The notes: generated from the letters alone by a model not told the origin. A DNA stretch of 64,000 bases from an uncultured Rhodospirillaceae bacterium (GCA_964517415.1 CAZFCA010000004.1:18754-82753), one strand, 5' to 3'; counted from the stretch's first letter, positions 7,028 through 27,762 are shown. Made by a program: numbers and translations.

Positions 7028-8198
7028 GTTCTTCGTCCCTGGAAATATTCGCGCGCATCATGGCGCCATTGTCCGACAGCAAAAGAATGGGCGCAGTGCC
7101 TATTTCATATGCTGATGTGCCGTCAGCCGACGTCACGCAGGCGTTCCAGGCAGGGGACAAGAGGCTAAGGGGTGTGCGAAGATATATTTTTTCGCCGACG
7201 GCCCAGGCTTTGGTTCGAGCGTCCAGTCCCCTCACTTTAAGCGGAACGGCTGAATTCGGCGGCGCGTTTTCGAGGATCAGTGTAATTGTTTCGTCGCCCG
7301 CTTCAAGGCGTGGGCGCTTGATGATTTGCGGCTTGGCGTTGGGCCCCAGTTTGCCGATCCGCGCATCGTAACGAAGATCGACCGTGGGGCCTCCCGAAGC
7401 GAGACGGAAAATAACGGGCGTCGGCAATCCCTGCAAAAGAACCGAGAGATCGCCTGTGCCTACGCGGGTCAAAGGCATGATGCGGACGACATGGGTTCCA
7501 GCCTTGGTGGGCGAAACCTCGAAATTGCCGCCGATCCCGACGTCCATAATGGGCCACGGCTCGCCCGTCGCGTCGACAATGGCGATGGTGGAAACGAAAC
7601 CGGCGTTCAGGTTGACTTGAGGCGTTTCGGTGCCCGGGTCGAGCGTGATCGTCGAAACGCGCGTTTGCCCCTTAGGCGTGCCTTCAGAAGGCATTTGCGA
7701 GGCGTCTTGCGTTTGTTCCAGCCGCTGCATGAACATGTGAATCTGTTCGGGCGAAAGCGGCATTAGACCCATAGAAGCCTTGTCGAAAGACTTGGCGTTA
7801 TGCTCCTGTTCGCGCCTGCGCTGATCGGCTTCGGCTTGGGTTTGCGCCTCAAGCGCCGCCTTCTCGGCTTCTATGGCAAGCTGGTTAGCGTCGGCCGAAA
7901 AAGCGGGAGCGGGCGGCGGCGACGGAACATCTTCTAGCGCGATTCCTTGGGGGGTGCTTGACGGCAGCGCTGATTGCGAAGCGCTTTTTTGAGGAAGAGG
8001 GAGCGAATCCGTAATAGAGCCGGGCCTCGCGATGCTGTTGCTTGCGGCGAATGCGGGCAGGGGCGTTTCGGAAAAAGCAAGAAGCGACCCGATGGCCAGA
8101 AGGGATAAGGATCCCGATTTAAGGCGGAGACAGGGGAATGTTTTGCGCAAAGACGGCTCCGAATCAGATAATTGCTTTGATTCTTTTTTTGAGCACAC
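7017..8198 (-). CDS. DotH/IcmK-like (IncI TraN-like) T4BSS core-complex protein
   Basis: Long collinear motif matches to DotH/IcmK as recalled: LSPEQI, AGFVSTIAIVDATGEPWPI, GLPTPVIFRL, VDLRYDARIGKLGPNAK, YLRTPLSLLSPAWNACVTSADGTSAYEIGTAPILLLS. It has an N-terminal signal-like segment. The start is a non-ATG (GTG) codon and is uncertain. Confidence 0.85.
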   Translation of the reverse strand: MCSKKESKQLSDSEPSLRKTFPCLRLKSGSLSLLAIGSLLAFSETPLPAFAASNSIARPGSITDSLPLPQKSASQSALPSSTPQGIALEDVPSPPPAPAFSADANQLAIEAEKAALEAQTQAEADQRRREQEHNAKSFDKASMGLMPLSPEQIHMFMQRLEQTQDASQMPSEGTPKGQTRVSTITLDPGTETPQVNLNAGFVSTIAIVDATGEPWPIMDVGIGGNFEVSPTKAGTHVVRIMPLTRVGTGDLSVLLQGLPTPVIFRLASGGPTVDLRYDARIGKLGPNAKPQIIKRPRLEAGDETITLILENAPPNSAVPLKVRGLDARTKAWAVGEKIYLRTPLSLLSPAWNACVTSADGTSAYEIGTAPILLLSDNGAMMRANISRDEEHDK

Positions 8199-8400: not shown

Positions 8401-9852
8401 TTAGCTTTGCAAAAGACGCCTTAGCAACTCCACGTCTTCTTTGAAGGCGGCGTCATAGGAAGAAAGTTCTTCAATCTTGCGCACGGCATGAATAACCGTG
8501 GTATGATCGCGCCCGCCAAATTTTCGCCCGATTTCCGGCAAACTGCGCGGGGTCAGCTGTTTGGCAAGGTACATCGCCACTTGCCTTGGCCTTGCTACAG
8601 AACGAGCGCGGCGTGCTGAATGCATATCGGCGACGCGAACGTTGTAGTGCTCGGCCACTTTTTTCTGGATTTCGTCGATGGTGATCCGGCGTTCCGAAGC
8701 GCGCAGAAGATCGGCCAAGACTTCCTGCGTCATTTCCAGCGAGATCGTGCGACCGACAAGCTGAGCATGAGCGACGATGCGGTTCAAAGCGCCTTCCAAC
8801 TCGCGCACGTTCGAGGTGATTTTATGCGCCAGAAATTCCATCACCTTATCGGGAACGGGGCAGCCCAGCTTGTCGGCCTTGGCGTGGAGAATGCCAAGGC
8901 GAAGCTCGTAATTGACTGGGTGAAGGTCGGCGACCAGACCCCATCCAAGGCGAGAGCGTAGCCGCTCCTCCATGCGGTCGAGATCCTGTGGAGATTTATC
9001 GGCGGAAACAATGACCTGCCGATTGCGGTCGACCAAGGCATTGAAGGTATGGAAAAATTCTTCCTGCGTGGACTCTTTTCCGCCGATGAACTGCACGTCG
9101 TCGATCATCAAAACGTCAACAGACCGGAATTGTTCCTTGAACGAGACTGTGTCCTTGAAGCGCAGGGCGCGAACGAACTGGTACATGAATTTTTCCGCAG
9201 ACATATAAATAACGCGGCGGTTCGGATAGGTGGTGCGAATATGCCAAGCGATGGCGTGCATCAGGTGGGTTTTTCCAAGGCCGACGCCGCCATAAAGAAA
9301 AAGGGGATTAAAAGCAGGATTTTCCGTATCCGCCACGCGCCGCGCCGCCGCATAGGCCAACTCGTTTGGTTTGCCGACCACGAAATTGTCGAAGGTAAAG
9401 CGCGGATCGAGATCCGCCGCCGTCTCGCCAGTCAAATGAGAAGGCGAAAAAGGAACAGCCTGAGCGGGAGCCGTCGCTGCGCTACGACCCGCGGGCGGCG
9501 AAGCGGATGCGGCGCTGTCAATGGCGTTTTTGGCTTGCGCCGCTTTGGCGAGCGGCGACAGGACGGAGAAAGTCACTCCGCCCCGAAGCGAAAATCTTTG
9601 CCACAAAACGCGAATGACCTCGCCATAATGCGCTTCGACCCAGTCGCGCATAAAGCGCGTCGGCAGAATCATATTGGCGTGGGCGATGCCCGCGTTATCG
9701 CGGGAGATTTCACTGACCATAGGCTCCAGCCAGCGGCGAAAGGCCGTTTCGCCGAAGCGCTCGCGCAAAAGAAGACGCAGATCATTCCAGGCTGTGTCGG
9801 GGGTATCCGTCGTCTTTGCTAAACCAATTTCTGCCGCTTGAACGCTCATCAT
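8401..9852 (-). CDS. dnaA: Chromosomal replication initiator DnaA
   Basis: 483 aa. AAA+ motifs (LFLYGGVGLGKTHL, LMIDDVQF) and the C-terminal DNA-binding helix (GGRDHTTVIHA). Confidence 0.97.
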   Translation of the reverse strand: MMSVQAAEIGLAKTTDTPDTAWNDLRLLLRERFGETAFRRWLEPMVSEISRDNAGIAHANMILPTRFMRDWVEAHYGEVIRVLWQRFSLRGGVTFSVLSPLAKAAQAKNAIDSAASASPPAGRSAATAPAQAVPFSPSHLTGETAADLDPRFTFDNFVVGKPNELAYAAARRVADTENPAFNPLFLYGGVGLGKTHLMHAIAWHIRTTYPNRRVIYMSAEKFMYQFVRALRFKDTVSFKEQFRSVDVLMIDDVQFIGGKESTQEEFFHTFNALVDRNRQVIVSADKSPQDLDRMEERLRSRLGWGLVADLHPVNYELRLGILHAKADKLGCPVPDKVMEFLAHKITSNVRELEGALNRIVAHAQLVGRTISLEMTQEVLADLLRASERRITIDEIQKKVAEHYNVRVADMHSARRARSVARPRQVAMYLAKQLTPRSLPEIGRKFGGRDHTTVIHAVRKIEELSSYDAAFKEDVELLRRLLQS

Positions 9853-10285: not shown

Positions 10286-10555
10286 CTAGGCCTTGCCGGC
10301 CTTTTTTGCGCGCTTGGCAAGACGCGAGGTTTTCCGAGCGGCCGTCCTTTTATGAAGCGTGCCTTTCGCCGCGCTTTTGGCGAGCGCGGACTCGGCTTTG
10401 CGCAAAGCCGCCTTAGCGGCAGACGCGTCGCCGGAAGCAAGCGCGGCTTCCGCGCCCTTGATCAAAGTGTGAATAAGAGAACGCCGCGCGCGGTTCTTTT
10501 CATTATGCTTGACCGTCTGGCGCGCCCGTTTTTTTGCGGATTTGTGGTTGGCCAT
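10286..10555 (-). CDS. rpsT: 30S ribosomal protein S20
   Basis: 89 aa, very basic, starting MANHKSAKKRARQ. It sits in the classical position upstream of dnaA. Confidence 0.95.
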   Translation of the reverse strand: MANHKSAKKRARQTVKHNEKNRARRSLIHTLIKGAEAALASGDASAAKAALRKAESALAKSAAKGTLHKRTAARKTSRLAKRAKKAGKA

Positions 10556-10920
10556 TAAAACGTCCTGAAGTTCTTGGATGATATCGAGGCGAATTCAATA
10601 CGCGCTGCCTGCGTTACGGTCAAGCCCAAATAAAAACATCCGCCACGCAACCGGAAAGTCAATAATTTAAGGGAATTCGAAAGAACCCGAAGGATGCGGC
10701 GCGTAAAAAGTCAAAGCGCCGGGGAAGACCTTATGCTCCACAATTTTTGGCATCGGCCAACCATCACCGCCCCGTCGTCGAGTTTTGGAAAAAGAACGCG
10801 AAATCGTTTTTACGCGAGAACGAGTTTCGTGATTTTCCAAAAAAAACCGCCCAAAGCCGATGGCGAGTCTCGTTAAAGATACCGATGTCGTTCGTGGCCA
10901 AGTGTTGCACAAATATCATG

Positions 10921-10947
10921 TTGCCGTAACGGCTGTCGCACTATAGT
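10921..10947 (+). promoter_or_regulatory. Candidate sigma70-type promoter for the pilL-like operon
   Basis: TTGCCG, 15-nt spacer, TATAGT, about 50 nt upstream of the ATG at 10995. The spacer is short, so support is weak. Confidence 0.25.
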
Positions 10948-10994
10948 ATTTAACGAATCACCTTGAGTTCTTTCACAGACAAAGGGCAGTTGAT

Positions 10995-11960
10995 ATGCCA
11001 AATAAAATTGCTTCCATATCCTATGGTGCGGTATCTCTTGCGTTGGCTGCTGTTCTTCTTGCATCGCCCGCTTCTGCAGGTTTCCAGATGGGCTCTGGCG
11101 GTACGGCGGTACGATCTTCCGCCCCTCGGCCTGCTTCGGATATGCCCGAGGTAATATCCCCCATCGTCATTTCCGGCGAACCGCAGCCCGTTTCTCTTTC
11201 TGCCCCACCCCCGGCTCCTGCTGTTCTTCCTTCCGCGCCCGCGCCTACCTTTCAGCCTCCAGCCGCACCTGCGGTAGATGTTTCCAACGCGGTGGTTCGC
11301 GGCTTTGCCTCGCAGGTGCCGCTTGCGCTGGCCATGCGGCAACTTCTGCCCGTCGGCTATACCTTTTACATCGATCAGGATGTTGATACGAATGTGCTCG
11401 TTTCTTATCGTGGCGGAAGGCCTTGGCCCGAAACGCTTAAAAGCATGCTGGCTCCCGTCGGGCTTGTTGATCAGATACAAGGAACGGTCGTAACGGTAAG
11501 CCGTGTGCCTTCGGGCGCGCCTGCAATGCCAATCGCGGAAACAACGCCGCTGACACAGCCCGCGCCGGCCGCGCCAAGAACAATCGGCCAGCTAACTATC
11601 CCTGCGACCTCGGCGCCTCCTCCTCCGCAACGTTTTGCGGCGCCCGCTCCATTGGCAAGCGCGCCAATGACTCCGTATGCCGCTGCCGAGTCATGGTCGG
11701 CTCAGCGCGGCGACACGCTTCACAAGGTGTTGACGGCTTGGTGTCGCAAGGCCAACGTGGAGCTTCAGTGGCTTTCCGAGTACGACTATCCCTTGCAGGC
11801 TTCGGTCAGTTTTAGCAACGGATTCGAAGACGCTGTGCGCGGCCTTCTGTCGGGGTTTGAAAATGCCCAGCCCCAGCCGGTAGGAGAGCTGCATGCCAGT
11901 TCTATCGCAGGGCAAATGGTATTAGTCGTTCAGGTGCGCGGCAATAGTTACACGAATTAA
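10995..11960 (+). CDS. PilL/TcpQ-like periplasmic protein (type IVb pilus accessory)
   Basis: Signal peptide, Pro/Ala-rich linkers, an STN-like segment (VPLALAMRQLLPVGYTFYIDQDV...GTVVTV) and a C-terminal TcpQ-like domain (WSAQRGDTLHKVLTAWCRKANVELQW...FEDAVRGLL). It lies directly upstream of the PilN-like secretin, as in IncI/ICE pil clusters. Confidence 0.6.
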   Translation: MPNKIASISYGAVSLALAAVLLASPASAGFQMGSGGTAVRSSAPRPASDMPEVISPIVISGEPQPVSLSAPPPAPAVLPSAPAPTFQPPAAPAVDVSNAVVRGFASQVPLALAMRQLLPVGYTFYIDQDVDTNVLVSYRGGRPWPETLKSMLAPVGLVDQIQGTVVTVSRVPSGAPAMPIAETTPLTQPAPAAPRTIGQLTIPATSAPPPPQRFAAPAPLASAPMTPYAAAESWSAQRGDTLHKVLTAWCRKANVELQWLSEYDYPLQASVSFSNGFEDAVRGLLSGFENAQPQPVGELHASSIAGQMVLVVQVRGNSYTN

Positions 11961-11971
11961 CGGAGATTGGG

Positions 11972-13627
11972 ATGCCTTTGAAACGGACGTTGCTCATGAA
12001 AAAAGTTGTCGGACGCCTTACATTCTGTGCCCTTATCGCAGCAGTCTCCATCGGTTTTGGCGGCTGTGAATTGGCGGAAAAAACCCGAACTGAAATCGAT
12101 CGGCAAGGAGCCGAGGCTCGGACATCCCTCGATAATGCGCAAAACATCCGCACGACTTCTTTCGATCCCTTAAAGGTTACGAACAAAGTTTGGGGTGGCA
12201 ATGCTTCCTTACGCATGCAGCGCGGCATGCCCCTGCCATCGCGGTATGAAACCAATCGCGGCGTCACTCTCGTTTCTTCGGAGCCTATGTCCTTGGAAGA
12301 AGTCGCGAATGCGGTCAGTTCCCAAACTGGCATTCCCGTCCGCATGAGCGCGCTGTCGATACCCGGTCGCTCCGCCGCCGCTTCATCATCATCTTCTTCG
12401 TCGTCGTCTTCTTCGAAAGGCGGCATGCCGGTTTCCTACGAAGGGCCGCTGTCGGGGCTGATGGATAGAATCGGCGCCTATTTCGGTGTCAGCTGGCGCT
12501 TTGATGGATCATCTATCGCCATCTCGCGCTACGAAACGCGCATATTCGCGGTCGAAGTTATGCCCGGCACGCATCAAATTAACGAAGGCATGGAAGACGA
12601 CGAAACTAGCAGCAGCAGCAGCAGCGGCAGCAGCAGCGGCGGCGGCAGCAGCACCAAGGCGATTACGCAAAATTCCAAAGTTACGATGGATCTCAAATAT
12701 TGGGACGAACTGACGGCCGTCCTCAACTCGATTGTGGGCACTCAAGGCAGCGTCGTCGTTTCGCCGACGATGGGCACGATTACGGTTACGACAACGCCCG
12801 AAGTCATGTCGACAGTCGCCGACTATATCTCGAAGGAGAACAAACGTCAGGCACGACAGATCGCGATTAACGTGACCATATACAGCGTTAATCTTTCCGA
12901 ATCCGAAGATTTTTCGACCGCCTTCACTGCCTTCCTGCGCAAATATGCCGGTATTGGCGGCATAGATCCCATAACGGGAGGCGCGATGCCGGCTATCACG
13001 TCTCCATCTGTGATCGCCAGCGATATGGGCAGTTTAAACCTTGCTATCATCGACGGCCACAGAATGGGCGCGCGCGATGTTTTCAGCGCGTTGTCTGCCA
13101 TCGGGGATACGACAACCGTCGCCTCCTTCCCCATGACGACCCTGAACAATCGCCCTGTTTCGCGGCGCATCGGAACGGATACGACCTATATTTCCGAAGT
13201 GACGCAAAATACCACGTCGTCTTCATCCACGACGACCATTGCGACGCCGACCACATCGGTCGTTCACGACGGCTTTTCGCTTCAAATTACGCCGCGCATT
13301 CTGGATGATGGGCGCATCCTTCTTCAATACTCGCTTAGCTTGATCGCTCTTCAAACGATGGACACGGCGGGAACGGGCACGGATTACACAATCAGCCTGC
13401 CCGTGACGGACAACAGAATCTTCATTCAACAGTCCATGCTGCGCAGCGGGCAAACGCTTATGATCGGCGGCGTCGATCAGAAAAAGCTGGCGCAAAACAA
13501 GCAAGGCATAGGCGTGCCGGACAACATCTTCCTCGGCGGAGGGCAGTCCACCTACGACTCCCATGTCATGATGTTTATTTCGATAACCCCGAAGGTCATG
13601 GATATGGGGCTTGAGGAGCGCAACTAA
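11972..13627 (+). CDS. PilN-family type IVb pilus secretin lipoprotein
   Basis: Lipobox IGFGGC. C-terminal secretin domain (FPMTTLNNRPVSRRIG...GFSLQITPRILDDGRILL...LRSGQTLMIGGV). Two poly-Ser linkers. A GGAG RBS lies 8 nt upstream of the ATG. Confidence 0.8.
   Translation: MPLKRTLLMKKVVGRLTFCALIAAVSIGFGGCELAEKTRTEIDRQGAEARTSLDNAQNIRTTSFDPLKVTNKVWGGNASLRMQRGMPLPSRYETNRGVTLVSSEPMSLEEVANAVSSQTGIPVRMSALSIPGRSAAASSSSSSSSSSSKGGMPVSYEGPLSGLMDRIGAYFGVSWRFDGSSIAISRYETRIFAVEVMPGTHQINEGMEDDETSSSSSSGSSSGGGSSTKAITQNSKVTMDLKYWDELTAVLNSIVGTQGSVVVSPTMGTITVTTTPEVMSTVADYISKENKRQARQIAINVTIYSVNLSESEDFSTAFTAFLRKYAGIGGIDPITGGAMPAITSPSVIASDMGSLNLAIIDGHRMGARDVFSALSAIGDTTTVASFPMTTLNNRPVSRRIGTDTTYISEVTQNTTSSSSTTTIATPTTSVVHDGFSLQITPRILDDGRILLQYSLSLIALQTMDTAGTGTDYTISLPVTDNRIFIQQSMLRSGQTLMIGGVDQKKLAQNKQGIGVPDNIFLGGGQSTYDSHVMMFISITPKVMDMGLEERN
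12608..12652 (+). repeat. In-frame AGC/GGC trinucleotide tract inside the pilN-like gene
   Basis: (AGC)6 GGC (AGC)3 (GGC)3 (AGC)2 encodes a Ser/Gly linker. A second Ser run, built from mixed TCA/TCT/TCG codons, lies at about 12378..12417. Confidence 0.85.
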
Positions 13628-14862
13628 TGGCATCCGGCGTCGTCACTGTAGGCCGCCATCGCTATGCCGTCGGTCTTTACTGGGAAAACAGCCCGGGCGG
13701 CGGGCATGTGGCCCAGATTGCGAAGGAAGCCGCGCGCCAGCCCGGCCAACAGGCTGACTTTTACGTCATCCGCCGCGGCACAAAAGACAGGCATGTCCCC
13801 CAGTTCGGTCTATGCGCGGGGGAGGCAGGGCAAAAAGCCGGCATGCCGGTTCTTGCGGGGTGTCTTGCCAGCCAGATACCCGGATCCTGGGCAGGCGCTT
13901 TCCGCCTGAATGAGGGCGTTGCCGTCATTATCGTTCGCGACGACCTGATCGTTCCTGACGGCGACTTGTTTTTTACGGATGAATCAGACGCGCGCGAACG
14001 CCTGATACAGGAAATCGGTTTTGGCGGCTTGCAAACCATTTACGCCCCCGAGGCGTGGTCTATCCCGGGCGCCGATACCATTCCGCTAACGTTACTTATC
14101 AGCAATCGAACCGACATCCAATTACAGCGGGTGTCCATACCACCGAAAGTCAAAATGGCTATAGCAGCGGGGGCTTTGGCTTTCGCGATTATTTTAGGAA
14201 TCGTCTGGGCGATTAATGCACGATTGGAAAAGGAAAGAACCGAACGTGAAGAAGGGGCGAAACTCGCCGCCAATTTGCCCCAGCTCTTTCAGCAACAACA
14301 GCCGAAGCCCGAGTATATTAGATATTGGGAAGATGCGCCGCTGGTAAACGCCATTCTAAGCGCATGCAAAGAAGGCCTTTCCCTTATTCCATCCGGCATG
14401 AGCGGTTGGAATCTGACGTCCATGTCCTGTAGCGGCTCAAGCCTGTCCTTATCATGGTCCCGTACGAAAGGCATAACGGAGCCGCCATTGGGCGCTCATG
14501 TGGATGATTCCGGCGGAATAGCCACCAAATCGATATCGATGAAAGCCCTTGAAAAGCGCGGTCACGAAGATTTATTGAATATCGAAGATATAACAAAGCG
14601 TTACCTTCTCCAAACATGGCCGGGTTCGATTGCGCGCGCGCCTGACGATCCGCCTCCACCTCCTCCCCCGGGATATAATGGGCAATGGACTCCCCCTCCT
14701 GCGCCTTGGGTTAAGCGTTCGTTTACGCTTACTGTGCCAGAATTGCCGGGTGGGCTTCCGGGATATATAGGTGATATCCCCGGGGCTATGATTAACAGCA
14801 TGAGCTATACGCCGAACGGCGTGTGGACCATCCAGGGGGTTATCTATGAGAATCGCAGGTAA
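13627..14862 (+). CDS. PilO-like type IVb pilus accessory protein (R64 PilO / PilO2 family)
   Basis: N-terminus of the pattern (V)GRHRYAVGLYWE, typical of this family, one central TM, and a poly-Pro segment (PPPPPPPGY). The start overlaps the pilN stop (TAATG). Confidence 0.65.
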   Translation: MASGVVTVGRHRYAVGLYWENSPGGGHVAQIAKEAARQPGQQADFYVIRRGTKDRHVPQFGLCAGEAGQKAGMPVLAGCLASQIPGSWAGAFRLNEGVAVIIVRDDLIVPDGDLFFTDESDARERLIQEIGFGGLQTIYAPEAWSIPGADTIPLTLLISNRTDIQLQRVSIPPKVKMAIAAGALAFAIILGIVWAINARLEKERTEREEGAKLAANLPQLFQQQQPKPEYIRYWEDAPLVNAILSACKEGLSLIPSGMSGWNLTSMSCSGSSLSLSWSRTKGITEPPLGAHVDDSGGIATKSISMKALEKRGHEDLLNIEDITKRYLLQTWPGSIARAPDDPPPPPPPGYNGQWTPPPAPWVKRSFTLTVPELPGGLPGYIGDIPGAMINSMSYTPNGVWTIQGVIYENRR

Positions 14863-15682
14863 AATCATCTCGCCAGTGACGTTTTCGGCTTTTGCGGCTG
14901 TCGTCACTGTTCTCGGGCTTTGCGTGTTTGCAGCCAAAGGGACATTTGCCGCAGATCCGGCTCCGGCGATTGCCTCTTCGGCACCCGTATCTCAAGCGCC
15001 CATGTCCTCGGCGCAAGCGGCGCCTGTTGCGGCTCCCGCAGCCGCGCCGGCAAGCTCAAACGTCATTCCCACGGCTTTTCAGGTTCCTGAAGCCCCCAAA
15101 ACCGAAGGGGGAGACGATATCGCGAAAGCACTTTCCTCCATGGAGGACAAAGTAACCGACAACGCCAAGGCGCTTGTCAAAAAGCTCGATACGACGGAGC
15201 CGACGACCATATCGGATCTGAACTCGGCCAAGCAAACAGTTACCCGCATCGAAGCCATGATCGATATCGAAAAGAGGCTCGGCGAACTCGAAAAGCTGCG
15301 CAACGAGCGCAATTCACGCTCTTTTGCGGGCATGATGCCGGGACTTCCTGCAGGCCTTGCCGCAGCCATTCCGGCCAGCGCGCTTCAGCCTTTGCCAGGG
15401 CCGCTTGCCGCTGTGTCGCCCAGCGGTTCGCCCGACAGCCCACCAATCTTTCATGTCGGCAGCGGGCGTCCTGAAATTTCCCGCATTTCAGGCACGGAAG
15501 GAAAATATGTGGCGGTATTGAAGATGCCTGACGGCGAGAAAAAGTCGGTGAAAGCCGGCGAAAAATTCAGCCACGGCACTGTGAGATCGATCACGTCTTC
15601 GTCGGTGGAGATTGCCGACAAGGGAACTTCATACACCTTGCGTATTAAAAACGTTGACGCCATTTACAGCGCCATGCGCTGA
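14846..15682 (+). CDS. PilP-like periplasmic protein
   Basis: Signal peptide, Ala/Pro-rich linker, coiled coil, and a small C-terminal beta domain (GKYVAVLKMPDGEKKSVKAGEKFSHGTVRSITSSSVEI). It has the right position in the PilN-O-P-Q order and overlaps pilO by 17 nt. Confidence 0.5.
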   Translation: MRIAGKIISPVTFSAFAAVVTVLGLCVFAAKGTFAADPAPAIASSAPVSQAPMSSAQAAPVAAPAAAPASSNVIPTAFQVPEAPKTEGGDDIAKALSSMEDKVTDNAKALVKKLDTTEPTTISDLNSAKQTVTRIEAMIDIEKRLGELEKLRNERNSRSFAGMMPGLPAGLAAAIPASALQPLPGPLAAVSPSGSPDSPPIFHVGSGRPEISRISGTEGKYVAVLKMPDGEKKSVKAGEKFSHGTVRSITSSSVEIADKGTSYTLRIKNVDAIYSAMR

Positions 15683-15775
15683 GGGCGTGAGGGATCAGGG
15701 ACAAATGGAAACGCCTTTGTTGCCGGGTTCGTCGCCTCGTGGATCGATTTTAAAACGCTTCCAAAGGGTGTTTGT

Positions 15776-17701
15776 GTGTTCAGTTTGTCTGATCTTGTGG
15801 AAGGAAAATTAAAGGCTTTTAGCAAGCCTCGTCCTTCTGCGGCCAAAACGAAGCCCGGCCCGTCAGGAAGACAGTTTCAGAACGTAAAGCAGGGAAACGT
15901 GACGGCGGGCGTAAAACCAGCGCAGCCCCCCGCTGTGCCGATGCCTTCCGATACGGTCGATCCCGCGGCCGAAGCGTCAGGAGCCCCGGTTCCCAATCAA
16001 CCGCCTGCCGACGTCATTAAACTTGAAGACGAACGCGCGCTCGCTCTTTTGTTTGAGGGCGAAGTGCTTACCGCTGAAGGCGGCGCGCTAAAAATTCCCG
16101 ACGAAGCACGGAATTTATGCGTCCTTTTTAAATCAGGGTTATGGCTGGTGAGCGCGTCGCACAGACGTTCGCCTTTGGTCACCTCCGTCGCGCAGGTTGC
16201 CAAAAGGCAGGGCCATAAGGTCGACGAGCCGCGCTTTGTAACACCGAACGTTATCATTCAGGCCTATATATTTGCCGAGCGGAGCGGAAAAAGCGGTCGC
16301 TTTGATGAAAACGCGGTGCGCCGCCGCATCGTGGCCACGTTTGAGCAAGCCGTGTCGATGGGCGCGAACGATATCCATATTGAATCCGTCGGCGGGCGCG
16401 CGGTTGTCCAGTTCCGCATCGACGGGTCGCTGCGGAGGCAAGACGTATGGACGCAAACGGAAGGCGATCACTTTCTTGCCGCAGTCTATTCCCACTCTAT
16501 TGGCCAGTCTGGCGCGACGGCCAACTTTCAAGAACCTCAAGCCGCGATGCTTGTGGGCGACGCGCGCGGCAAGGAAGTCATCAATCTTCCCAAAGGCATC
16601 GTCAGCGTGCGCTGCCAATGGGTGCCTTTATCGAACAACGGCGCCTATCTCGATATGCGCCTGTCCTACGATTCAGGCCATTTGTGGGGCGAAAATTTCG
16701 TCATGGCCGATGTCGACTCGCTCGGCTTTTCGCAGGAGCAGTTGAAGGTCGTGCAAAGGCTGCGCGCCGCCCCCGGAGGATTGCGCATTTTTTCAGGTCC
16801 CGTCAACCAAGGTAAAACGACGACGCTGCGCGTCGTGCTGAACCGCCGCATGGCGGAAACCGAAATGCGGCTGAACTGCCTGATGATCGAAGACCCCCCC
16901 GAAGGCGGCGTCGAAGGGGCGCGCCAATTGGGCGTTTCCGCTTCGGTCAAGGACGAGCAGCGCGAAAAAACCTTCGTCGAAATCATGCGCTGCGCCTTGC
17001 GCCTCGACCCCGACATCGTCATGCTCGGCGAAATTCGTGATCCGCAAACAGCGCAATTCGCTTTTCGTTTGGCGCTTACAGGACGACAGGTGTACACGAC
17101 ATCTCACGTGTATTCCGCCTTGGCGACTCCCAAGCGCCTACGCGATATTGGGATCGAGCCTTACTTGGTGTACGACCACCATCTTGTGCGCGGCATGGCG
17201 TGCCAACGCCTTTTGCGAAGCCTTTGCCCTTATTGCCGCGTGCCGATTCAAGAGGCGATCAAAGAATACGGCCCTACGGTGCGCGAACTTGCCAAGCGCG
17301 TGCGCGCGGGACTTGCGATCTTGGACGCGCGCCGAAAAAAGGAAAACGTCGGTAAGCCGATCATGGAATGCCTGACTGAACCCGACCTCAGCAATGTCTA
17401 TCTAGCCAATCCAGAAGGCTGCCCGAAATGCTACAAGGGGCGGCAAGGGCGCACGGTTTGCGCTGAAATTGTTGAAACCGACCCGAAACTTATGGCCCTT
17501 TTGGAGGATAACCGCGAGGAGGAGGCCGAAAGTTATTGGCTCTCGCCCATCGGCCTGAATGGCATTACCATGCTGCAACGGGGTCTTGAAAAGGTTCGCG
17601 CGGGTGAAGCCTCGCCCGACGACGCTGAATTCGAGCTGGGAACTTTCGCCAGCGATAACGAGCTTCTTGAAGTTGAACAAAAACTGGGGCCACTGCGATG
17701 A
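15776..17701 (+). CDS. PilQ-like GspE/PilB-family assembly ATPase
   Basis: Walker A GPVNQGKTTT, Asp box/Walker B region (LMIEDPPE, IVMLGEIRD), and a tetracysteine motif (CPYC...CPKC). It has an N-terminal extension of about 200 aa. The start is GTG and uncertain. Confidence 0.85.
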   Translation: MFSLSDLVEGKLKAFSKPRPSAAKTKPGPSGRQFQNVKQGNVTAGVKPAQPPAVPMPSDTVDPAAEASGAPVPNQPPADVIKLEDERALALLFEGEVLTAEGGALKIPDEARNLCVLFKSGLWLVSASHRRSPLVTSVAQVAKRQGHKVDEPRFVTPNVIIQAYIFAERSGKSGRFDENAVRRRIVATFEQAVSMGANDIHIESVGGRAVVQFRIDGSLRRQDVWTQTEGDHFLAAVYSHSIGQSGATANFQEPQAAMLVGDARGKEVINLPKGIVSVRCQWVPLSNNGAYLDMRLSYDSGHLWGENFVMADVDSLGFSQEQLKVVQRLRAAPGGLRIFSGPVNQGKTTTLRVVLNRRMAETEMRLNCLMIEDPPEGGVEGARQLGVSASVKDEQREKTFVEIMRCALRLDPDIVMLGEIRDPQTAQFAFRLALTGRQVYTTSHVYSALATPKRLRDIGIEPYLVYDHHLVRGMACQRLLRSLCPYCRVPIQEAIKEYGPTVRELAKRVRAGLAILDARRKKENVGKPIMECLTEPDLSNVYLANPEGCPKCYKGRQGRTVCAEIVETDPKLMALLEDNREEEAESYWLSPIGLNGITMLQRGLEKVRAGEASPDDAEFELGTFASDNELLEVEQKLGPLR

Positions 17702-18795
17702 GCGAATTTGAAGAAAAACTAGCCTCCTTTCAGGAGAAACTCACGAAATTCCAGTTTCGCGTCAATCGGCGCATAAGGTACCGGATCTACCGGAAGCTGG
17801 AAGGCATGTTGAAGACGAACGAAGCGTTATCCCGCTCGTTGGATCGTCTTTATCAAAACATGACCGAAATGGGCAAATATCCGCAGCGTCCTTCCGCCAT
17901 CGCCCTTCGCGAATGGTTTTTGAAGGATCGGTCGGGCATTTCGCTTTCTCAAGCCATGGAAAGCTGGATTCCTGACGGCGAGCTTTACATGATCCGAGCG
18001 GGCGAGGAATCGGGCACCTTGGCCAAGGCGCTGGCGTCCATCCAAATCATGGGCAAGCGCGGTCGCGAAATGAGGGAGGCGGTGACCTATGCCATCGGTT
18101 ATCCGGCTTTTATCACTCTGCTGGTCGGCTTCGTGATTTGGACCTTCGGCGTCAACCTGATTGCCAACATGCGCGCCAACGCGCCGAAGAATATCGTGGA
18201 TTCCCTTGGGATGATCGTGCCGTTTTCTGATTTCATCGGCGACTGGGGGCTTTATATCGTCGCTTTCATCATTATCGTTTGCGTCGTGATAACGCTTACT
18301 ATGCCCTATTGGCGCGGGCCTTTGCGCTCCAAATTCGATATGTACCCGCCGTGGTCGTGGTATCGCGTCTTGCAGGGCAGCAGCTTTCTTTTAGGGTTAT
18401 CCTCGCTTCTTGGATCGCAGGTGCCGCTAAAACGCTCGCTGGAAATTCTTGAAGAGCAGGGCAGCCCATGGATCAAAGAGCGCATCAATGCCGCGCGGCA
18501 AGGCGTTTTGCGCGGGCAAAACCTGGGCGAGGCTTTGCGGCTTAGCAAAATGAATTTTCCAGAGCCCGGCGTGGCCATCGACCTTGAAATTTTGGCTGAT
18601 CGCGCCGACGTCGGCGCTGTGATCGAACAGGTCGCGGACGAATGGATGCAGGAACAGGTCGATACCATGAAAATGCAGGCTGTCTTTATCCGAAATGTCG
18701 GAATGGCTGTCGTCGGCGGCATTATCGCTTGGGCGATGATGTCCATCTTCAGCGTCGTGGGCGAGCTGTCCAAGGGCGGCTCAGCCATGGGCTAA
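17698..18795 (+). CDS. PilR-like GspF-family inner-membrane platform protein
   Basis: 365 aa with three hydrophobic segments separating two cytoplasmic helical domains. The start shares an ATGA overlap with the pilQ stop. Confidence 0.8.
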   Translation: MSEFEEKLASFQEKLTKFQFRVNRRIRYRIYRKLEGMLKTNEALSRSLDRLYQNMTEMGKYPQRPSAIALREWFLKDRSGISLSQAMESWIPDGELYMIRAGEESGTLAKALASIQIMGKRGREMREAVTYAIGYPAFITLLVGFVIWTFGVNLIANMRANAPKNIVDSLGMIVPFSDFIGDWGLYIVAFIIIVCVVITLTMPYWRGPLRSKFDMYPPWSWYRVLQGSSFLLGLSSLLGSQVPLKRSLEILEEQGSPWIKERINAARQGVLRGQNLGEALRLSKMNFPEPGVAIDLEILADRADVGAVIEQVADEWMQEQVDTMKMQAVFIRNVGMAVVGGIIAWAMMSIFSVVGELSKGGSAMG

Positions 18796-19015
18796 ATCAG
18801 AAGGCAGAAGGCCAGTATCAGGCATCAGAAAGCACGAGGAATAACCGAGCCATAATACCGATTTGGTTCCTTTTACCACGCCCCCAGCCCCCGACCGATA
18901 TGAATCGCTGGTACCCGCCATGCCTGTCCTGCCTTCGCAGGGAAAGGCTCTCGCGGCTCCATCCGTTTTCATTTTTTACGTGTAAAAACGCTCAAAAACG
19001 TTTTTCAGAAGACTG

Positions 19016-19975
19016 CTAATGGCTCATCGACACGACCTTGAGTATCGCCGGCCCCAAAAGAACGACGAACAGCGGTGGCAGAATGAATAGAATCATCGGC
19101 ACCGTAAGTGTCGCCGGCAGCTTCGCCGCCTTTGTCTCGGCCGCCATGATGCGGTCGTTGCGCATTTCGCCCGATAAAACCCGCAAGGCCTGAGCCAACG
19201 GCGTGCCATATCTTTCTGTTTGGATAAGCGTGTTTACAAGGCCGACCACGCCTGGCAAAGGCACGCGGTCGCCCAGATTTTGCAAGGCTTGGCTGCGCTC
19301 GGGGAAGAAGCTCAACTCGACCCCGGTCAAACCGACTTCCTCGGCCAATTCGGGGCAGGAAGGCTCCAATTCGCGACTTACGCGAGCCAAGGCCGCGTCA
19401 AGGCTCAATCCTGCCTCGGCGCATATCACCATCAAATCAAGCGCGTCGGGCATGGCCTTCCTTAAAATGGAAGCGCGCTTCTGGCTCAAATTTTTAACAT
19501 AAAGTGAAGGCAGCATGACGCCCAGAACAAGCATGCCGCAAAAAGCCAGCATGCGAGGCATAGTGTCGAAACTAAAGGCTTGCGCCACGAAAAGAACAAA
19601 AAAGGCGATAAACCCGATCAATACCGGGGAGACGATGCGAATCAAAAGATAGGTCATGACTGCCTCGCGCGACCGATAGCCTGCGCGCGCCAGTTTCAGG
19701 CGAAGCTCGCTCGTTTGTTTGCCTTGTTCGAGTCGCATCTTCTGCACAAGCCGCTTGATGAAATCCGTCTTGATCAGATTTTCTCGGCGGGATTTTTTCA
19801 GTTGCCGCTGCGCCTCCGTCAACTCTTTGCGCCTTTCCGCTATCCCTTTCAAGCGGTCTTCCAGAGGATTGTCGTCGACAAGCGCCATCCAGATCAAAAC
19901 CACGACAACGACGGCGCCCAATCCGCAAACAAAGGAAAGAACGGTCGGATCATGCAAGGCGCGGTCGAGCGTCAT
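19016..19975 (-). CDS. tadC: Tad pilus platform protein TadC
   Basis: GspF-like half-size membrane protein immediately downstream of tadB. Confidence 0.85.
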   Translation of the reverse strand: MTLDRALHDPTVLSFVCGLGAVVVVVLIWMALVDDNPLEDRLKGIAERRKELTEAQRQLKKSRRENLIKTDFIKRLVQKMRLEQGKQTSELRLKLARAGYRSREAVMTYLLIRIVSPVLIGFIAFFVLFVAQAFSFDTMPRMLAFCGMLVLGVMLPSLYVKNLSQKRASILRKAMPDALDLMVICAEAGLSLDAALARVSRELEPSCPELAEEVGLTGVELSFFPERSQALQNLGDRVPLPGVVGLVNTLIQTERYGTPLAQALRVLSGEMRNDRIMAAETKAAKLPATLTVPMILFILPPLFVVLLGPAILKVVSMSH

Positions 19976-19984
19976 CGCGTCTCC

Positions 19985-20959
19985 CTATAATTCAAAATTG
20001 ACCATTTTGAGCATTACGGCCCATCCCGTCGCCATCCAGCAAAGGCCGCCAGCCAATAAATACTGGCCCTTCGTCTGGGTGAATAGAATGGACACATAGC
20101 TATAATTCACGAACAAAAGCAGGGCGAACATGATAAAAGGCAACGAGCCGATAATCATCGCGCTGGCCTTGGCCTCTGACGACATGGCCTTGACCTTCTG
20201 CTTTAACTGCCGGCGCTTGCGGATAAGATCGGACAGGTTGCCCAGAGTTTCCCCCAGATTTCCGCCGGTTTCCTTCTGAATCGCCATGGCGATGATCAGA
20301 AAACGGAATTCCGGAACGCTGATGCGCCGCTCCACTTCCCACATTGAGGCTTCGAGCGTTTTGCCCATGCGCACGCCGTCGCTGACGCGCAAAAATTCGA
20401 TTCCCACGGGGTCCGGCAGTTCGCGACCGACGGCCGCGATGGATTCCGTAATCGGCAAGCCGGAACGAATGCCGCGGCACATGGTGTCGATAGCCTCGGG
20501 AAAGCTCGCGATAAATTTTTTATGGCGGCGCTTGACCATCCATCCGATGATAAAGTGGGGCAGGCCAAGCCCAAACATGATGGACAAAGGAAGGATCGCG
20601 GCCTTTTTTATCTCGAAAAAGTTCAACGCCAAATCAACCAGCAAAACCGACAAGGCGTTGGTCAAAAGATATTCGCCCAACGTCAGGCTACCCCCTGTCG
20701 CCGCAAGCCTGTCCCGCAATTTATCGGGATTCGGCAAAGCTTTCACAAGCCTGTCGAGCAAGGGAATGGCGCTGTCTTTCGTCGAGCGCACGCTGTTGAT
20801 TCGATCTGACGTGCTAATTTTATGCGCGACTTTTTGGCCTGCAACGCGCGCCAACCGCTTTTCGATGTTGAGGGACTCGCCGCCCAGCGCGTAGACGAGC
20901 AGCAAAACGAAGACCGACGCGCCGACCCCCAGCACAAGAGAAAGGAGAGTCGCGTGCAT
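19985..20959 (-). CDS. tadB: Tad pilus platform protein TadB
   Basis: GspF-like membrane protein downstream of cpaF. Confidence 0.85.
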   Translation of the reverse strand: MHATLLSLVLGVGASVFVLLLVYALGGESLNIEKRLARVAGQKVAHKISTSDRINSVRSTKDSAIPLLDRLVKALPNPDKLRDRLAATGGSLTLGEYLLTNALSVLLVDLALNFFEIKKAAILPLSIMFGLGLPHFIIGWMVKRRHKKFIASFPEAIDTMCRGIRSGLPITESIAAVGRELPDPVGIEFLRVSDGVRMGKTLEASMWEVERRISVPEFRFLIIAMAIQKETGGNLGETLGNLSDLIRKRRQLKQKVKAMSSEAKASAMIIGSLPFIMFALLLFVNYSYVSILFTQTKGQYLLAGGLCWMATGWAVMLKMVNFEL

Positions 20960-20961
20960 GC

Positions 20962-22590
20962 CTAGATCTCCATGGTTTCCATAAGCTGCTTGTCCAAACC
21001 GAAATAGGCGGCCTTGGGCAGGCAGTGCGGGCGCAGGCCGTGGTTCTTGAATTCGACGATCAGTCGGCCGTCCGGCATTTCGCCCGTGACGTCGCAGGTA
21101 TAAAGATCCTGCATGGTGATTACCTCGTCTTCCATGCCCGTGATTTCGGTCACATAGGTAACTCGGCGAGACCCATCGCGCAAGCGGCCTACTTGGATGA
21201 TCATATCCAGTGCCGAGGCTATTTGCTGCCTGATCGCGCGCGGCGAAAGATTGGCACTGGCCATGCCCACAAGGTTTTCAAGGCGCATGATCGCCTCGCG
21301 CGGGCGGTTTGCGTGCACGGTGGACATAGAGCCGTCATGGCCGGTGTTCATGGCCTGAAGCATATCCAGCGCTTCGCCGCCGCGCGTTTCGCCGACGATA
21401 ATGCGGTCGGGGCGCATGCGCAGAGCATTTTTTACGAGATCCCGCATGGTCACCTCGCCGCTTCCTTCAAGGTTGGGGGGGCGCGTTTCAAGGCGCACAA
21501 CATGCGGCTGCTGCAATTGAAGTTCGGCGGCGTCTTCGATGGTCACAATGCGTTCGCCATGATCAATCATCTGCGACAGCGCGTTTAAAAGCGTCGTTTT
21601 GCCCGATCCCGTGCCGCCCGAAATCAAGATATTGAGCCTAGATCGGCCTGCAATGCGCAGCAGCTTCGCCATAGGCGGCGAAAGGCTGTTAAATTTCAGC
21701 ATCGTATCCAGCGTTATTTTTTTCTTCGCGAATTTGCGGATCGTGATCGTCGCGCCGTCGATAGCCAGCGGAGGAATGATAATATTTACGCGGCTGCCGT
21801 CGGCAAGGCGCGCGTCGCAAAGCGGCGAGCTTTCGTCGATGCGCCGGCCGATAGCCGTGACGATGCGCGTCGCGATGGAAAGAACGTGCGTGTTGTCGCG
21901 GAATTGAACGTCGGACAGCGTCAGTTTGCCCTTGTTTTCGATGTATACTTTCTTGGCGCCGTTGACCATGATTTCAGAAATGCCTTCATCCGCCAAAAGC
22001 GGCTCCAGCGGCCCAAGCCCAAGCATATCGTCCAGCAATTGCTTGACCAGTTCGGCGCGTTCGGCGGCGTTCAATTGGATTCGCGTTTCATCCAAAAGCT
22101 CGGTTATCAGCCCCGTCAGGTCGCGCGAAAGTTCTTCGCGGGGCAATTTCGCGGCCGCGGAAGTGTCGATGCGCTCGAAAACGATGGGCTGCAATTTCAG
22201 CTTGGCCTGCTCTACGCTGGCGCGGCTTGAGTTGCGCATATAGGGATCGGCTGGCGCGGCGGGAACCGATATTTCCGGCATCGCCATCTTTTCAACCGGC
22301 GGCGAGACCTCGGCGATGGCCGGCGGCAAGGTTTTGACTGCGGCAACGCCATCGCTTTGCGCCATAAAACCGTTCACCAGCGCCGTGACAAGATCCCTTT
22401 GATCCAAAAGATTAAGCTCTATCTTCTGCGCGACGACGAACTGTGACACAACCGCCTTGGCTTCGCGCGCTATATCCACGCGATGCACCCACTTGACCTT
22501 TTCGGGAGGAATCTTTTCCTTGAGCGCGGACATTAAATGGTCGCGCAGGGCGGGAAGGCTCAAATCCGTGATGGGCGATTCGGCGTCCAT
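20962..22590 (-). CDS. cpaF: Tad pilus ATPase CpaF/TadA
   Basis: Walker [16 protein letters not shown], and the motifs [10 protein letters not shown] and [11 protein letters not shown]. Confidence 0.95.
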
Positions 22591-23855: not shown

Positions 23856-24328
23856 GGCGCTGCCGCTGCCCCCCCGGCGGCGGGCGAGCCTCCCGCCGTA
23901 ATATCGCCAGTCATTCCGGAGCTCGGGCTCGCCGCCGTCGTCGCGGCAATCGCGTTCGTATCCGCAGACGGCATCACAAGGCCGCGTGGCTGATTGTTGT
24001 CATAACGCCGCACGGCGCCCACCGCCATCACGCCGCGCTGGTTCGCCAGGTTGCGCCCCTCGACCAGATCGTTCGGCCTTTCGATCATGGCGGCCAAGTT
24101 CCTTGCATGGGCGCAGCCGTATTGAGGATAAGGCTGGTTGTCGAAGGGGTTCGTGACGGCGCCGCTCCAACTGGGGCACGGCGGCGGAGTCGCCTCGCCA
24201 TGCCCATCAACAGTTGGCGCCACGCGAATGGCGTAATCGGGTTGGGCCGTCGGCGGAAACCAGTTTGCGCACGCGGCCAAGGCCAACAGGCAGGGCGTAA
24301 GGAAAGCTAAAGTCAAAAAGCGATTCAT
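23852..24328 (-). CDS. cpaD: CpaD-like pilus assembly lipoprotein
   Basis: Lipobox LALAAC and a conserved GCAHARNLAAMIERPNDLVEGR segment. Correct position after cpaC. Confidence 0.7.
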   Translation of the reverse strand: MNRFLTLAFLTPCLLALAACANWFPPTAQPDYAIRVAPTVDGHGEATPPPCPSWSGAVTNPFDNQPYPQYGCAHARNLAAMIERPNDLVEGRNLANQRGVMAVGAVRRYDNNQPRGLVMPSADTNAIAATTAASPSSGMTGDITAGGSPAAGGAAAAP

Positions 24329-24331
24329 CTC

Positions 24332-26065: not shown

Positions 26066-26068
26066 GGC

Positions 26069-27420: not shown

Positions 27421-27450
27421 GCTCTCTATTCCCTTGAACGCATGTGAGAG

Positions 27451-27465
27451 TTAAGCCAGTTTTAA
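27451..27465. promoter_or_regulatory. CtrA-box-like motif TTAA-N7-TTAA upstream of cpaA
   Basis: TTAAGCCAGTTTTAA lies about 30 nt upstream of the cpaA start. Confidence 0.35.
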
Positions 27466-27593
27466 GAGACTACCAACGGTGTGGTTAATGAGGGGTGAAC
27501 AAAAGTTGAAAAAAGGACAATAAAAACCATAGGCTAAGACATTTTCTTAACTTAATGCCTTATCCATACACAGATGCCCGTTTTTATTGGAAA

Positions 27594-27652: not shown

Positions 27653-27705
27653 TTAGCGCAGACTTGGGCAGAACCTATATCCTGTAGGTGAAAACAGGCC
27701 TGCCC

Positions 27706-27736: not shown

Positions 27737-27762
27737 CCGTCTTCTCAACTCTAATTTCTCGT

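Follow-up and report, generated by a model that had tools for sequence, protein, structure and literature searches.

Predicted type IVb pilus assembly operon without linked pilin genes, close to Dot/Icm genes, in an uncultured Rhodospirillaceae bacterium

We analyzed a 64,000-nt stretch of DNA from an uncultured Rhodospirillaceae bacterium (hereafter the window, with positions counted from its first letter), concentrating on a cassette of predicted pilus assembly genes. Open reading frame (ORF) calling identified six tightly coupled genes on the plus strand at 10995-18795, in the order pilL-pilN-pilO-pilP-pilQ-pilR, with products of 321, 551, 411, 278, 641 and 365 residues, respectively. The genes, with their predicted roles, and the two spacers that border them are:

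10995-11960, plus strand: pilL, exported partner of the secretin, with a linker rich in Pro and Ala and a TcpQ/BfpG-like (N0-like) domain at the C terminus
11972-13627, plus strand: pilN, type IVb-class lipoprotein secretin forming the outer-membrane channel
13627-14862, plus strand: pilO, bitopic inner-membrane assembly protein
14846-15682, plus strand: pilP, periplasmic protein whose C-terminal domain is PilP/GspC-HR-like, presumed to connect the secretin to the inner-membrane platform
15776-17701, plus strand: pilQ, GspE/PilB-class assembly ATPase
17698-18795, plus strand: pilR, GspF/PilC-class inner-membrane platform
10556-10994 (439 bp), between divergent genes: non-coding rpsT-pilL spacer, presumed promoter region of the pil operon
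18796-19015 (220 bp), between convergent genes: pilR-tadC spacer, where relatives outside the clade of the window (see below) hold prepilin genes

Eleven nucleotides separate pilL from pilN, pilN and pilO overlap by 1 nt (TAATG), pilO and pilP by 17 nt, and pilQ and pilR by 4 nt (ATGA), while a gap of 93 nt lies between pilP and pilQ. A preliminary description of the locus had proposed six coupled plus-strand genes in the order typical of the R64 plasmid and the PAPI-1 element, and our coordinates and junctions agree with it. It had further stated that only non-coding sequence separates pilL from rpsT and that the operon stops after pilR. Both statements hold, as the 439-bp upstream spacer contains only short ORFs without a family signal or a prepilin leader, and the 220 bp up to the convergent tadC contain only ORF fragments of 23-63 residues, none of them with a prepilin leader. 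Scans of the window for sigma-70 and terminator consensus sequences returned no more sites than were found in shuffled sequence, and none in either spacer; the placement of the promoter in the rpsT-pilL spacer is presumptive.

Family and structure matches (E-values in parentheses) indicate that the six genes encode a type IVb pilus assembly machine of the class represented by IncI plasmids, PAPI-1 and the bundle-forming pilus (BFP). PilL has an N-terminal signal peptide ending in ...SPASA^G (the caret marks cleavage) without a lipobox Cys. Residues 233-296 match the Pfam family TcpQ (PF10671, 1.5e-12), and a profile built from 15 PilL orthologs matches BfpG (PDB 9u5s chain R, 2e-11), a protein that binds the BfpB secretin (PMC12531336). 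PilN contains Secretin and Secretin_N_2 domains (Pfam) and a lipobox-like ...GFGGC with the Cys at residue 32. Its best NCBIfam model is the PilN family TIGR02520 (3.5e-76), at 257 bits and so below the 288-bit equivalog cut-off; residues 42-545 align with BfpB (PDB 9u5s_A, 8.6e-61), and full-length identity to the secretins of IncI plasmids and BFP is 28-31%. PilO matches PAP_PilO over its whole length (PF06864, 5.9e-24, 85 bits against a cut-off of 26.7 bits), with a cytoplasmic BfpC-like N-domain, a single predicted transmembrane (TM) segment at residues 173-191 and a periplasmic C-domain. With a PilO profile, the N-domain matched PDB 4bz0/4byz, deposited as type IV pilus biosynthesis proteins (3e-5), and BfpC (3vhj, 0.0095). 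Plasmid genes annotated as pilO2 match PilO at 25-35% identity, and relatives of the protein are named "type 4b pilus protein PilO2" by NCBI. For PilP, the match to the pilP_fam model TIGR03021 was weak (3e-7; 31.5 bits, below the 34.65-bit cut-off), and a profile of 15 orthologs matched the GspC HR domain (7oio, 3.7e-4); pilP is located between pilO and pilQ in 49 of 56 clustered loci, a set that includes four copies of the window's own species. PilQ belongs to the T2SSE family (4e-54) and contains the Walker A motif GPVNQGKT, the Walker B motif IVMLGEIRD and two CxxC motifs. PilR matches T2SSF in two stretches (8e-23), has three TM segments and is 93% identical to its counterpart in the sister species L001 (L-numbers denote individual loci or contigs of relatives, several of which end early at contig ends).

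Models for other secretion and pilus systems performed no better. PilN matched the secretin models MshL at 1e-28, PilQ at 2.5e-11 and GspD at just 9e-9, and no match to a pseudopilin or to GspL/M, components of a type II secretion system (T2SS), was found in the window. The MshL score of 99.9 bits lies well under both its own 250-bit cut-off and the score of the PilN model, and the gene set differs from that of the mannose-sensitive hemagglutinin (MSHA) pilus. The toxin-coregulated pilus (Tcp) was likewise no better a fit. A Bosea plasmid carries, in order, genes for a TcpQ-family protein, a secretin, PilO2, a hypothetical protein, an ATPase, a T2SSF protein, another ATPase, another hypothetical protein and PilV. 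The family matches and structure matches, together with the order on the Bosea plasmid, make the type IVb assignment given in the preliminary description a sound one. Several features that mark the IncI/PAPI-1 type are found at this locus: a PilN-family secretin with PilO directly after it, a TcpQ/BfpG-like PilL upstream, a GspE-class ATPase followed by a GspF-class platform protein, and association with a Dot/Icm-like type IV secretion system (T4SS).

The cassette lacks linked substrate genes. No PilS-family prepilin gene and no PilV gene were found in the window, the pil cluster of the window contains no A24 peptidase (PilU) or transglycosylase (PilT), and neither pilT nor pilM is linked to the cassette. 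Class-III signals, defined as a K/R-containing leader, then G, xxxxE and a hydrophobic segment, were sought from all start codons in the six reading frames of the 64 kb. Of the three ORFs returned, only the Flp pilin at 27763-27924 was plausible as a prepilin, and the remaining two were chance matches lying within other genes or antisense to them. The window's six-frame translation gave no match at E<=1 to a hidden Markov model (HMM) built from 60 related PilS-type pilins. A24 prepilin peptidases are represented in the window by CpaA alone, which is part of a Tad locus described below and is a candidate for processing type IVb prepilins. BLAST with this CpaA against the fetched pil loci of relatives returned no A24 match. 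The search was extended leftward with same-species contigs matched through the 880-residue SecA (L072); on the right, contigs carrying rpoH break inside gyrB. About 9 kb past the left end held housekeeping genes only and no pil gene. Pfam and NCBIfam scans of the remaining window ORFs without a family revealed no additional pil or dot genes, and the rest of the window consists of chromosomal housekeeping genes (secA, dnaA, rpsT, ispB, hemD/Y, bipA, plsX, fabH, uppS, pyrH, tsf, rpoH and gyrB). In keeping with the earlier statement that hallmarks of integrative and conjugative elements (ICEs) are missing, no integrase or relaxase domains were found in the scanned window ORFs (flanking direct repeats were not searched for), a tRNA scan and an Rfam scan of the window gave no match, and GC content was even across the region.

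In order to place this arrangement in context, we compared it with those of relatives. PilO had 251 detected homologs, the named ones being from uncultured Alphaproteobacteria, "Bdellovibrionales" or Pseudomonadota metagenome-assembled genomes (MAGs); NCBI places Micavibrio under Bdellovibrionales. A scan of one genome per GTDB species yielded 52 loci, three of them labelled Micavibrio. The order pilL-N-O-P-Q-R was kept wherever it could be read in these loci, PilO identity ranged from 40 to 89%, and the flanking genes varied. The locus is no isolated oddity: the cassette is conserved in at least 52 species, and its ancestral form continues with PilS-type pilins. In 26 loci, tandem genes of about 190-245 residues directly follow pilR. 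Their products have a leader of 5-25 residues, a cleavage site of the form ...RG^F(T/S)L(T/I)E, two conserved cysteines and a mature length of about 190 residues, and the Pfam database assigns them the domains PilS and Bundlin, which identifies them as true type IVb pilins.

The window and 17 other loci have no pilin after pilR, and no pilin was found within about 6 kb downstream of pilR in 17 informative clade members. In a neighbor-joining tree of concatenated PilN, PilO, PilQ and PilR (44 taxa, 1940 columns), these 18 loci formed one clade, which indicates that the linkage was lost once, in the ancestor of the clade. Outside it, 1-6 (mostly 2-5) tandem prepilin genes follow pilR in 24 of 26 terminals, and the remaining two end before the pilin position; pilins are adjacent in every informative locus outside the window's clade of 18. 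The ancestral form thus has PilS-type pilins directly after pilR, and the pilin-less state is a derived gene arrangement and not a new kind of machine. The lack of pilU, a shufflon and pilM/I/J/K, previously read as incompleteness, calls for another interpretation. None of these was seen in the pil loci of relatives either (for the shufflon, no recombinase was among the recurrent neighbors, and shufflon repeats were not looked for), and their absence is therefore a property of the whole family. Within the pilin-less clade, the window and L001 have rpsT-dnaA-dotHGF upstream of the cassette. Most other members have a response-regulator-like gene and a gene for a 715-749-residue protein upstream and yggS-like and aroA genes downstream, and L008, L010, L011 and L035 have dotDCB-icmT upstream. 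The cassette has thus occupied at least three neighborhoods with a constant internal order, and behaves as a self-contained operon.

Some loci outside the clade carry, after the pilins, genes for a 208-residue protein and a PilV-like protein of about 450 residues. PilV-like minor pilins of 441-452 residues are encoded at L052 18736-20091, L098 12023-13381 and L100 8649-9974. In the L052 protein an N_methyl prepilin leader occurs together with a C-terminal Peptidase_S74 domain, which in phage tail-spike proteins and endosialidases acts as an intramolecular chaperone; those of L098 and L100 are its BLAST homologs, at 36-41% identity. The PilV-like S74 protein could serve as a fibre-like adhesin at the tip. 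Near the cassette, L004 (570-2593) and also L005, L006 and L009 have two tandem ATPase genes of about 337 residues. Their products fell in the DotB/CpaF sequence cluster, from which their reading as PilT/PilU-like derives, and as such they might supply retraction.

Pilins unlinked from the machine genes are frequent in related organisms. We scanned metagenomes with the pilin profile and kept 80 loci, 38 of which have at least 3 kb upstream of the pilin. In 16 of these 38 PilS-type pilin loci pilR is directly upstream, and in 22 it is not beside the pilin. Lone pilins were found among housekeeping genes in L113 and L138 (in the latter, a major-type pilin about 4 kb from dnaA), and unlinked modules of a pilin with a PilV-like protein in L098-L100. 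One genome probably holds both linked and unlinked pilins, as L041, a cassette followed by two minor pilins, comes from the same metagenome as the unlinked L100, L138 and L140 and has a tetranucleotide profile that correlates with theirs at r 0.94-0.98. The 585-kb clade-B contig Ga0455843_0000003, which carries both a PilO homolog (P0018) and a DotH homolog (P0290), was not among the 80 pilin loci kept. A comparable dispersal has been described in Micavibrio aeruginosavorus ARL-13, where eight prepilins are encoded in three dispersed operons (PMC3189940). The gene table for this strain also lists a 274-residue "type IV leader peptidase," GMV_1537, in addition to a Tad peptidase, and GMV_1537 lies inside a T4a-like cluster (GMV_1534-1544) with a secretin and PilT/PilU-like ATPases (PMC3189940). 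ARL-13 was not among the matches of the GTDB species scan for the cassette. The frequency of unlinked pilins and the dispersed prepilins of ARL-13 make location of the pilins and the peptidase elsewhere in the genome the expected state in this group.

Several pilin loci are worth recording separately. PilS-type HMM matches divergent from rpsT-dnaA were found in L155 (9238-9933 and 10758-11396), L163 (9857-10360) and L152 (1663-2355), all three being freshwater metagenome contigs; in the window, pilL has this position. Pil and dot genes seem to be housed repeatedly in the origin-proximal rpsT-dnaA region. L079 (6590-12667; equivalent to L092) has three unlinked PilS/bundlin pilins, followed by a 632-650-residue protein without a family match, in a setting of housekeeping and flagellin genes; this large product is possibly a further tip or adhesin component. 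P0214, P0189 and P0174 were considered as pilins of the window's own genome and ruled out. All come from other species, two from ordinary pilR-linked loci and one from an unlinked locus of another organism.

The machine genes are under strong purifying selection, which points to continued use. Between the window and L001 (PilO 89% identical), the ratio of nonsynonymous to synonymous substitution rates (dN/dS) was 0.03-0.10 for all six genes, with the lowest value, 0.033, in pilR; the same comparison gave 0.04 for dnaA and 0.06-0.12 for dotH/G/F. No member of the pilin-less clade has a disrupted ORF among the six. The Walker A, Walker B and CxxC motifs of PilQ are invariant in 44/44 aligned orthologs, and the motifs of PilQ and PilR show no divergence specific to the pilin-less clade.

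On the other side of the cassette, the preliminary description had named only rpsT and dnaA as its neighborhood and had overlooked three genes of a Dot/Icm-type secretion system (type IVB secretion system, T4BSS) directly beyond dnaA, which are followed by secA. These neighbors are:

10286-10555, minus strand: rpsT, upstream neighbor of pilL
8401-9852: dnaA, beyond rpsT
7017-8198, minus strand: dotH/icmK, T4BSS outer-membrane core (PF12293, 9e-69; 377 residues according to gene callers)
5444-7027, minus strand: dotG/icmE, with a TrbI/VirB10-like C-domain (Pfam TrbI; NF033900 2.9e-46 versus IncI1 TraO 3e-20)
4397-5356, minus strand: probable dotF/icmG, traP-like, on weak matches (NF038218 1.9e-4, TraP 2.4e-4)

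The order dotH-dotG-dotF is also that of Legionella and R64, and a dotF-like gene is placed after dotH-dotG in L083 and L084 as well. L083, from a clade-B genome, repeats the window's rpsT-dnaA-dotH-dotG-dotF-secA-eamA, and L001 has the same dotF-dotG-dotH-dnaA-rpsT-pilL...R arrangement. DotH had 342 homologs; those that carry a name are annotated as DotH/IcmK family type IV secretion proteins and come, as the pil loci do, from Alphaproteobacteria, Bdellovibrionales and Pseudomonadota MAGs. Among the 38 species with enough upstream sequence to be informative, 25 have dotD-dotC-dotB, nearly always with icmT, directly upstream of pilL on the same strand. In full, the upstream block (L025 2213-7018 and 24 others) encodes an SLT transglycosylase, a DsbG-like protein with a thioredoxin fold, a 94-residue protein, DotD (5.5e-26), DotC/TraI (2e-70), DotB (TIGR02524 6e-119 versus TraJ 6e-71) and IcmT/TraK (1.5e-22); the transglycosylase gene, present upstream in relatives, is absent from the window. 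The dotD-dotC-dotB-icmT series mirrors traH-traI-traJ-traK of IncI1 plasmids. In one relative the genes run dotI-dotI-dotH-dotG, then five genes without assignment (one of 997 residues) and dotM, an order that is Legionella-like.

The association of dotDCB-icmT with pilL is the real link to the pairing known from IncI plasmids, in which type IV pili are combined with a Dot/Icm-like system and promote contact with distant recipients in liquid (PMC12857230). Given the dot genes beside the pil cassette in the window and its relatives, the cassette appears to be the thin-pilus module of a chromosomal T4BSS. In a review, chromosomal Dot/Icm systems are described as a hallmark of Legionellales and a few other gammaproteobacteria (PMC11338181). 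The ARL-13 paper, the sole genome study of this cultured predator, reported no evidence for a type IV secretion system, and its gene table contains an "icmO" (GMV_383, 2583 bp) six genes after dnaA (GMV_376) (PMC3189940). We found no published description of a T4BSS-type IVb pairing in Micavibrio or Micavibrionales in the searchable literature, which is not proof of novelty.

A complete Tad/Flp locus (flp, cpaA, cpaB, cpaC, cpaD, cpaE, cpaF, tadB and tadC) occupies 19016-27924 on the minus strand and converges on pilR. The genes of interest here are:

19016-19975, minus strand: tadC, convergent with pilR
26923-27420, minus strand: cpaA, the A24 prepilin peptidase noted above (Peptidase_A24 1e-14, 165 residues)
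27763-27924, minus strand: flp, Flp pilin of 53 residues (G^ATAIEY)

Convergent tadC genes also lie a few kb past pilR in the Micavibrio MAGs L025 and L034. In L001 and the other members of the pilin-less clade, yggS-like and aroA genes are found downstream of pilR, and no tad genes. We considered a 3.7-kb deletion from a Micavibrio-like pilR-pilin-pilin-...-tadC arrangement as the origin of the window's layout and rejected it, as the nearest relatives have no tad downstream; for the same reason, the adjacency shared with the Micavibrio MAGs is probably coincidental.

Comparison with characterized systems helps to define what this locus resembles. The thin pilus of R64 and ColIb-P9 (IncI1) is encoded by pilI-pilV, beside Dot/Icm-like tra/trb genes. 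It has PilL (TcpQ-like), PilN, PilO, PilP, PilQ and PilR in the same order as here, and the likeness extends to the PilS-family pilins and large PilV-like minor pilin of the window's relatives and to the physical proximity of the pilus genes to homologs of DotD/TraH, DotC/TraI, DotB/TraJ and IcmT/TraK. However, the system described here is chromosomal and lineage-wide whereas IncI1 is plasmid-borne, and its proteins are only about 25-31% identical to the plasmid homologs (PilO up to 35%). The pil loci have no pilI/J/K/M, pilU peptidase or rci shufflon. The genes for an SLT transglycosylase and a DsbG-like protein are grouped with the dot genes upstream and not placed after pilS, DotB and DotG match the Legionella Dot/Icm models better than those of TraJ and TraO, and in the window's clade the pilins are unlinked. 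The PAPI-1 cluster of Pseudomonas aeruginosa (pilL2-pilN2-pilO2-pilP2-pilQ2-pilR2-pilS2-pilT2-pilV2-pilM2) shares the core order L-N-O-P-Q-R, judged from its gene list; the window differs in having no ICE hallmarks, pilT2 or pilM2, and in its clade the pilins are not adjacent. A PAPI-1-type pilus also cooperates with a transfer system (PMC12857230).

With regard to the BFP of enteropathogenic Escherichia coli, the best solved-structure matches are BfpB for PilN, BfpG for the C-domain of PilL and BfpC for the N-domain of PilO, and relatives have pilins with the Bundlin domain of Pfam. The loci differ in gene order and accessory genes, as the BFP locus begins with bfpA and includes the retraction ATPase BfpF, the peptidase BfpP and BfpU/H/I/J/K/L, and BFP is not known to be associated with a T4SS. 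Relative to the IncI/PAPI-1/BFP class as a whole, the PilV-like protein found here differs in carrying an S74 chaperone domain. The Dot/Icm systems of Legionella and Coxiella share with the window and its relatives homologs of DotH, DotG, DotF, DotD, DotC, DotB, IcmT, DotI and DotM, the order dotI-dotH-dotG-dotF...dotM seen in relatives, and chromosomal, apparently vertical inheritance. Here, in contrast, the host lineage is alphaproteobacterial and Micavibrio-related, and a type IVb pilus cassette accompanies the secretion genes, as on IncI plasmids; we know of no such link in Legionella.

We consider it probable that the type IVb machine is the thin-pilus module of a chromosomal Dot/Icm T4BSS, with its pilins and peptidase encoded elsewhere. 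The six genes would form one operon encoding a complete envelope-spanning assembly apparatus, in which PilN would be the lipoprotein secretin with PilL as its BfpG/TcpQ-like partner, PilO and PilP would join the inner-membrane platform to the secretin, PilQ would act as assembly ATPase and motor, and PilR as platform. Linkage between the machine genes and the prepilin genes of the PilS/bundlin family was lost in the clade's ancestor, and the machine would still polymerize PilS-type pilins encoded elsewhere in the genome, after their cleavage by an unlinked A24 peptidase, which may be PilD-like or possibly CpaA, 8 kb away. The R64 thin pilus stabilizes mating pairs for the Dot/Icm-like Tra system. 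By analogy, the fibre would most likely bring a target cell into contact so that the T4BSS can act, and in Micavibrio-like epibiotic predators the target might, speculatively, be a prey bacterium. The system is conserved in uncultured Alphaproteobacteria, some of them labelled Micavibrio, and its spread and uniform composition suggest vertical inheritance. Of the two options left by the preliminary description, the comparative data favor a subunit and peptidase encoded elsewhere, and we found no positive support for a function other than that of a pilus. We also put forward, as a tentative and rather doubtful extension, that a chromosomal Dot/Icm system fused to an IncI-like pilus is used against other cells: the pilus would hold the target (prey, in predators) while the T4BSS injects effectors, and the operon would have been freed from its pilin genes so that sets of pilins and adhesins can be exchanged or regulated independently.

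Several points weigh against this interpretation. The pilins and peptidase of this genome have not been located in the 64-kb window and about 9 kb past one of its ends. PilN and PilP, being under the NCBIfam equivalog cut-offs, are distant members of their families. Adjacency to T4BSS genes is not proof of functional coupling, and the linkage of dotDCB to pilL is broken in the window's own subclade. dS was saturated (1.4-2.4), which makes the dN/dS values approximate, with a clear direction. Finally, the Micavibrio-related placement rests on the labels of related loci and not on a phylogeny of the window, and predation is known only from cultured Micavibrio.

An alternative is that type IVb pilins have truly been lost and the machine has been put to a use that involves no fibre, as a T2SS-like exporter or a secretin conduit for the T4BSS. 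Such a loss would account for the lack of pilins in the 64 kb and the adjoining 9 kb, as well as within about 6 kb past pilR in 17 clade members, in a cassette that is nevertheless under purifying selection, and the ARL-13 paper did read the GspD/E/F-like genes of Micavibrio as a T2SS without pseudopilins (PMC3189940). We regard it as unlikely, given the frequency of unlinked PilS-type pilins in related contigs, the lack of PilQ/PilR motif divergence specific to the pilin-less clade, and a secretin that is PilN/BfpB-like and not GspD-like. To our knowledge, moreover, all characterized type IV filament machines (T2SS, type IV pili, Com and Tad) need pilin-like subunits. The related proposal that the cassette is a decaying remnant left after pilin loss could appeal to the missing substrate genes and is effectively refuted: ORFs are intact across the clade, the coupled junctions are preserved, and the low dN/dS (0.03-0.10) together with the invariant catalytic motifs of the ATPase excludes decay.

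The cassette might instead be a fragment of an IncI- or PAPI-1-like plasmid or ICE, acquired in a recent horizontal transfer and cut short after pilR. The closest characterized systems are indeed on plasmids and ICEs, the flanks of the cassette differ between species, and in the window it is a plus-strand unit among mostly minus-strand genes, on what GC skew suggests to be the left replichore, where its transcription would run head-on to replication. We find this highly improbable, because the window has no integrase, relaxase, tRNA or composition shift, all 52 species loci carry the cassette with a PilO identity (40-89%) that resembles species divergence, identity to plasmid homologs is only about 25-31% (PilO up to 35%), and L001 shares the dotF-dotG-dotH-dnaA-rpsT-pilL...R arrangement among neighbors that are housekeeping genes. 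We attach even less weight to the idea that the pil machine borrows the Flp pilin and/or the CpaA peptidase of the Tad locus. A complete Tad locus with flp and cpaA does end 220 bp from pilR, and L025 and L034 also have tadC convergent a few kb past pilR. However, the Tad locus is equipped with an ATPase, platform proteins and a secretin of its own, the pil-tad adjacency is not conserved in L001 or the rest of the pilin-less clade, and Flp, with 53 residues and G^ATAIEY, is unlike the PilS-type substrates of the machine's relatives; CpaA on its own may serve as a shared peptidase.

The locus offers a general lesson: when pilins are "missing" from beside a type IV filament machine, relatives need to be compared first and a new function suggested only afterwards. 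In this case the relatives turn an apparent anomaly into one rearrangement at the base of an 18-species clade. They also reveal a T4BSS and type IVb pilus pair on the chromosomes of at least 52 species in a group of Alphaproteobacteria related to Micavibrio. Should the pair act on prey cells, it would provide a testable molecular handle on epibiotic "leeching" predation, and it would be, as far as we know, the first T4BSS aimed at bacteria.

Some further features of the window were recorded. Cumulative GC skew has its minimum at about 32000-39000, and gene orientation flips over the same region, being mostly minus before about 32.7 kb and mostly plus after about 39.7 kb. The replication origin is probably near hemD/hemY/DUF2336/bipA, rather than at dnaA, and the plus-strand pil operon, apparently on the left replichore, would then be transcribed head-on to replication. 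Other genes encode a 270-residue protein consisting of a methyl-accepting chemotaxis protein (MCP) signalling domain alone (37124-37936), a GGDEF protein (45822-46682) and a bacterial WD40 beta-propeller protein (54170-55348).

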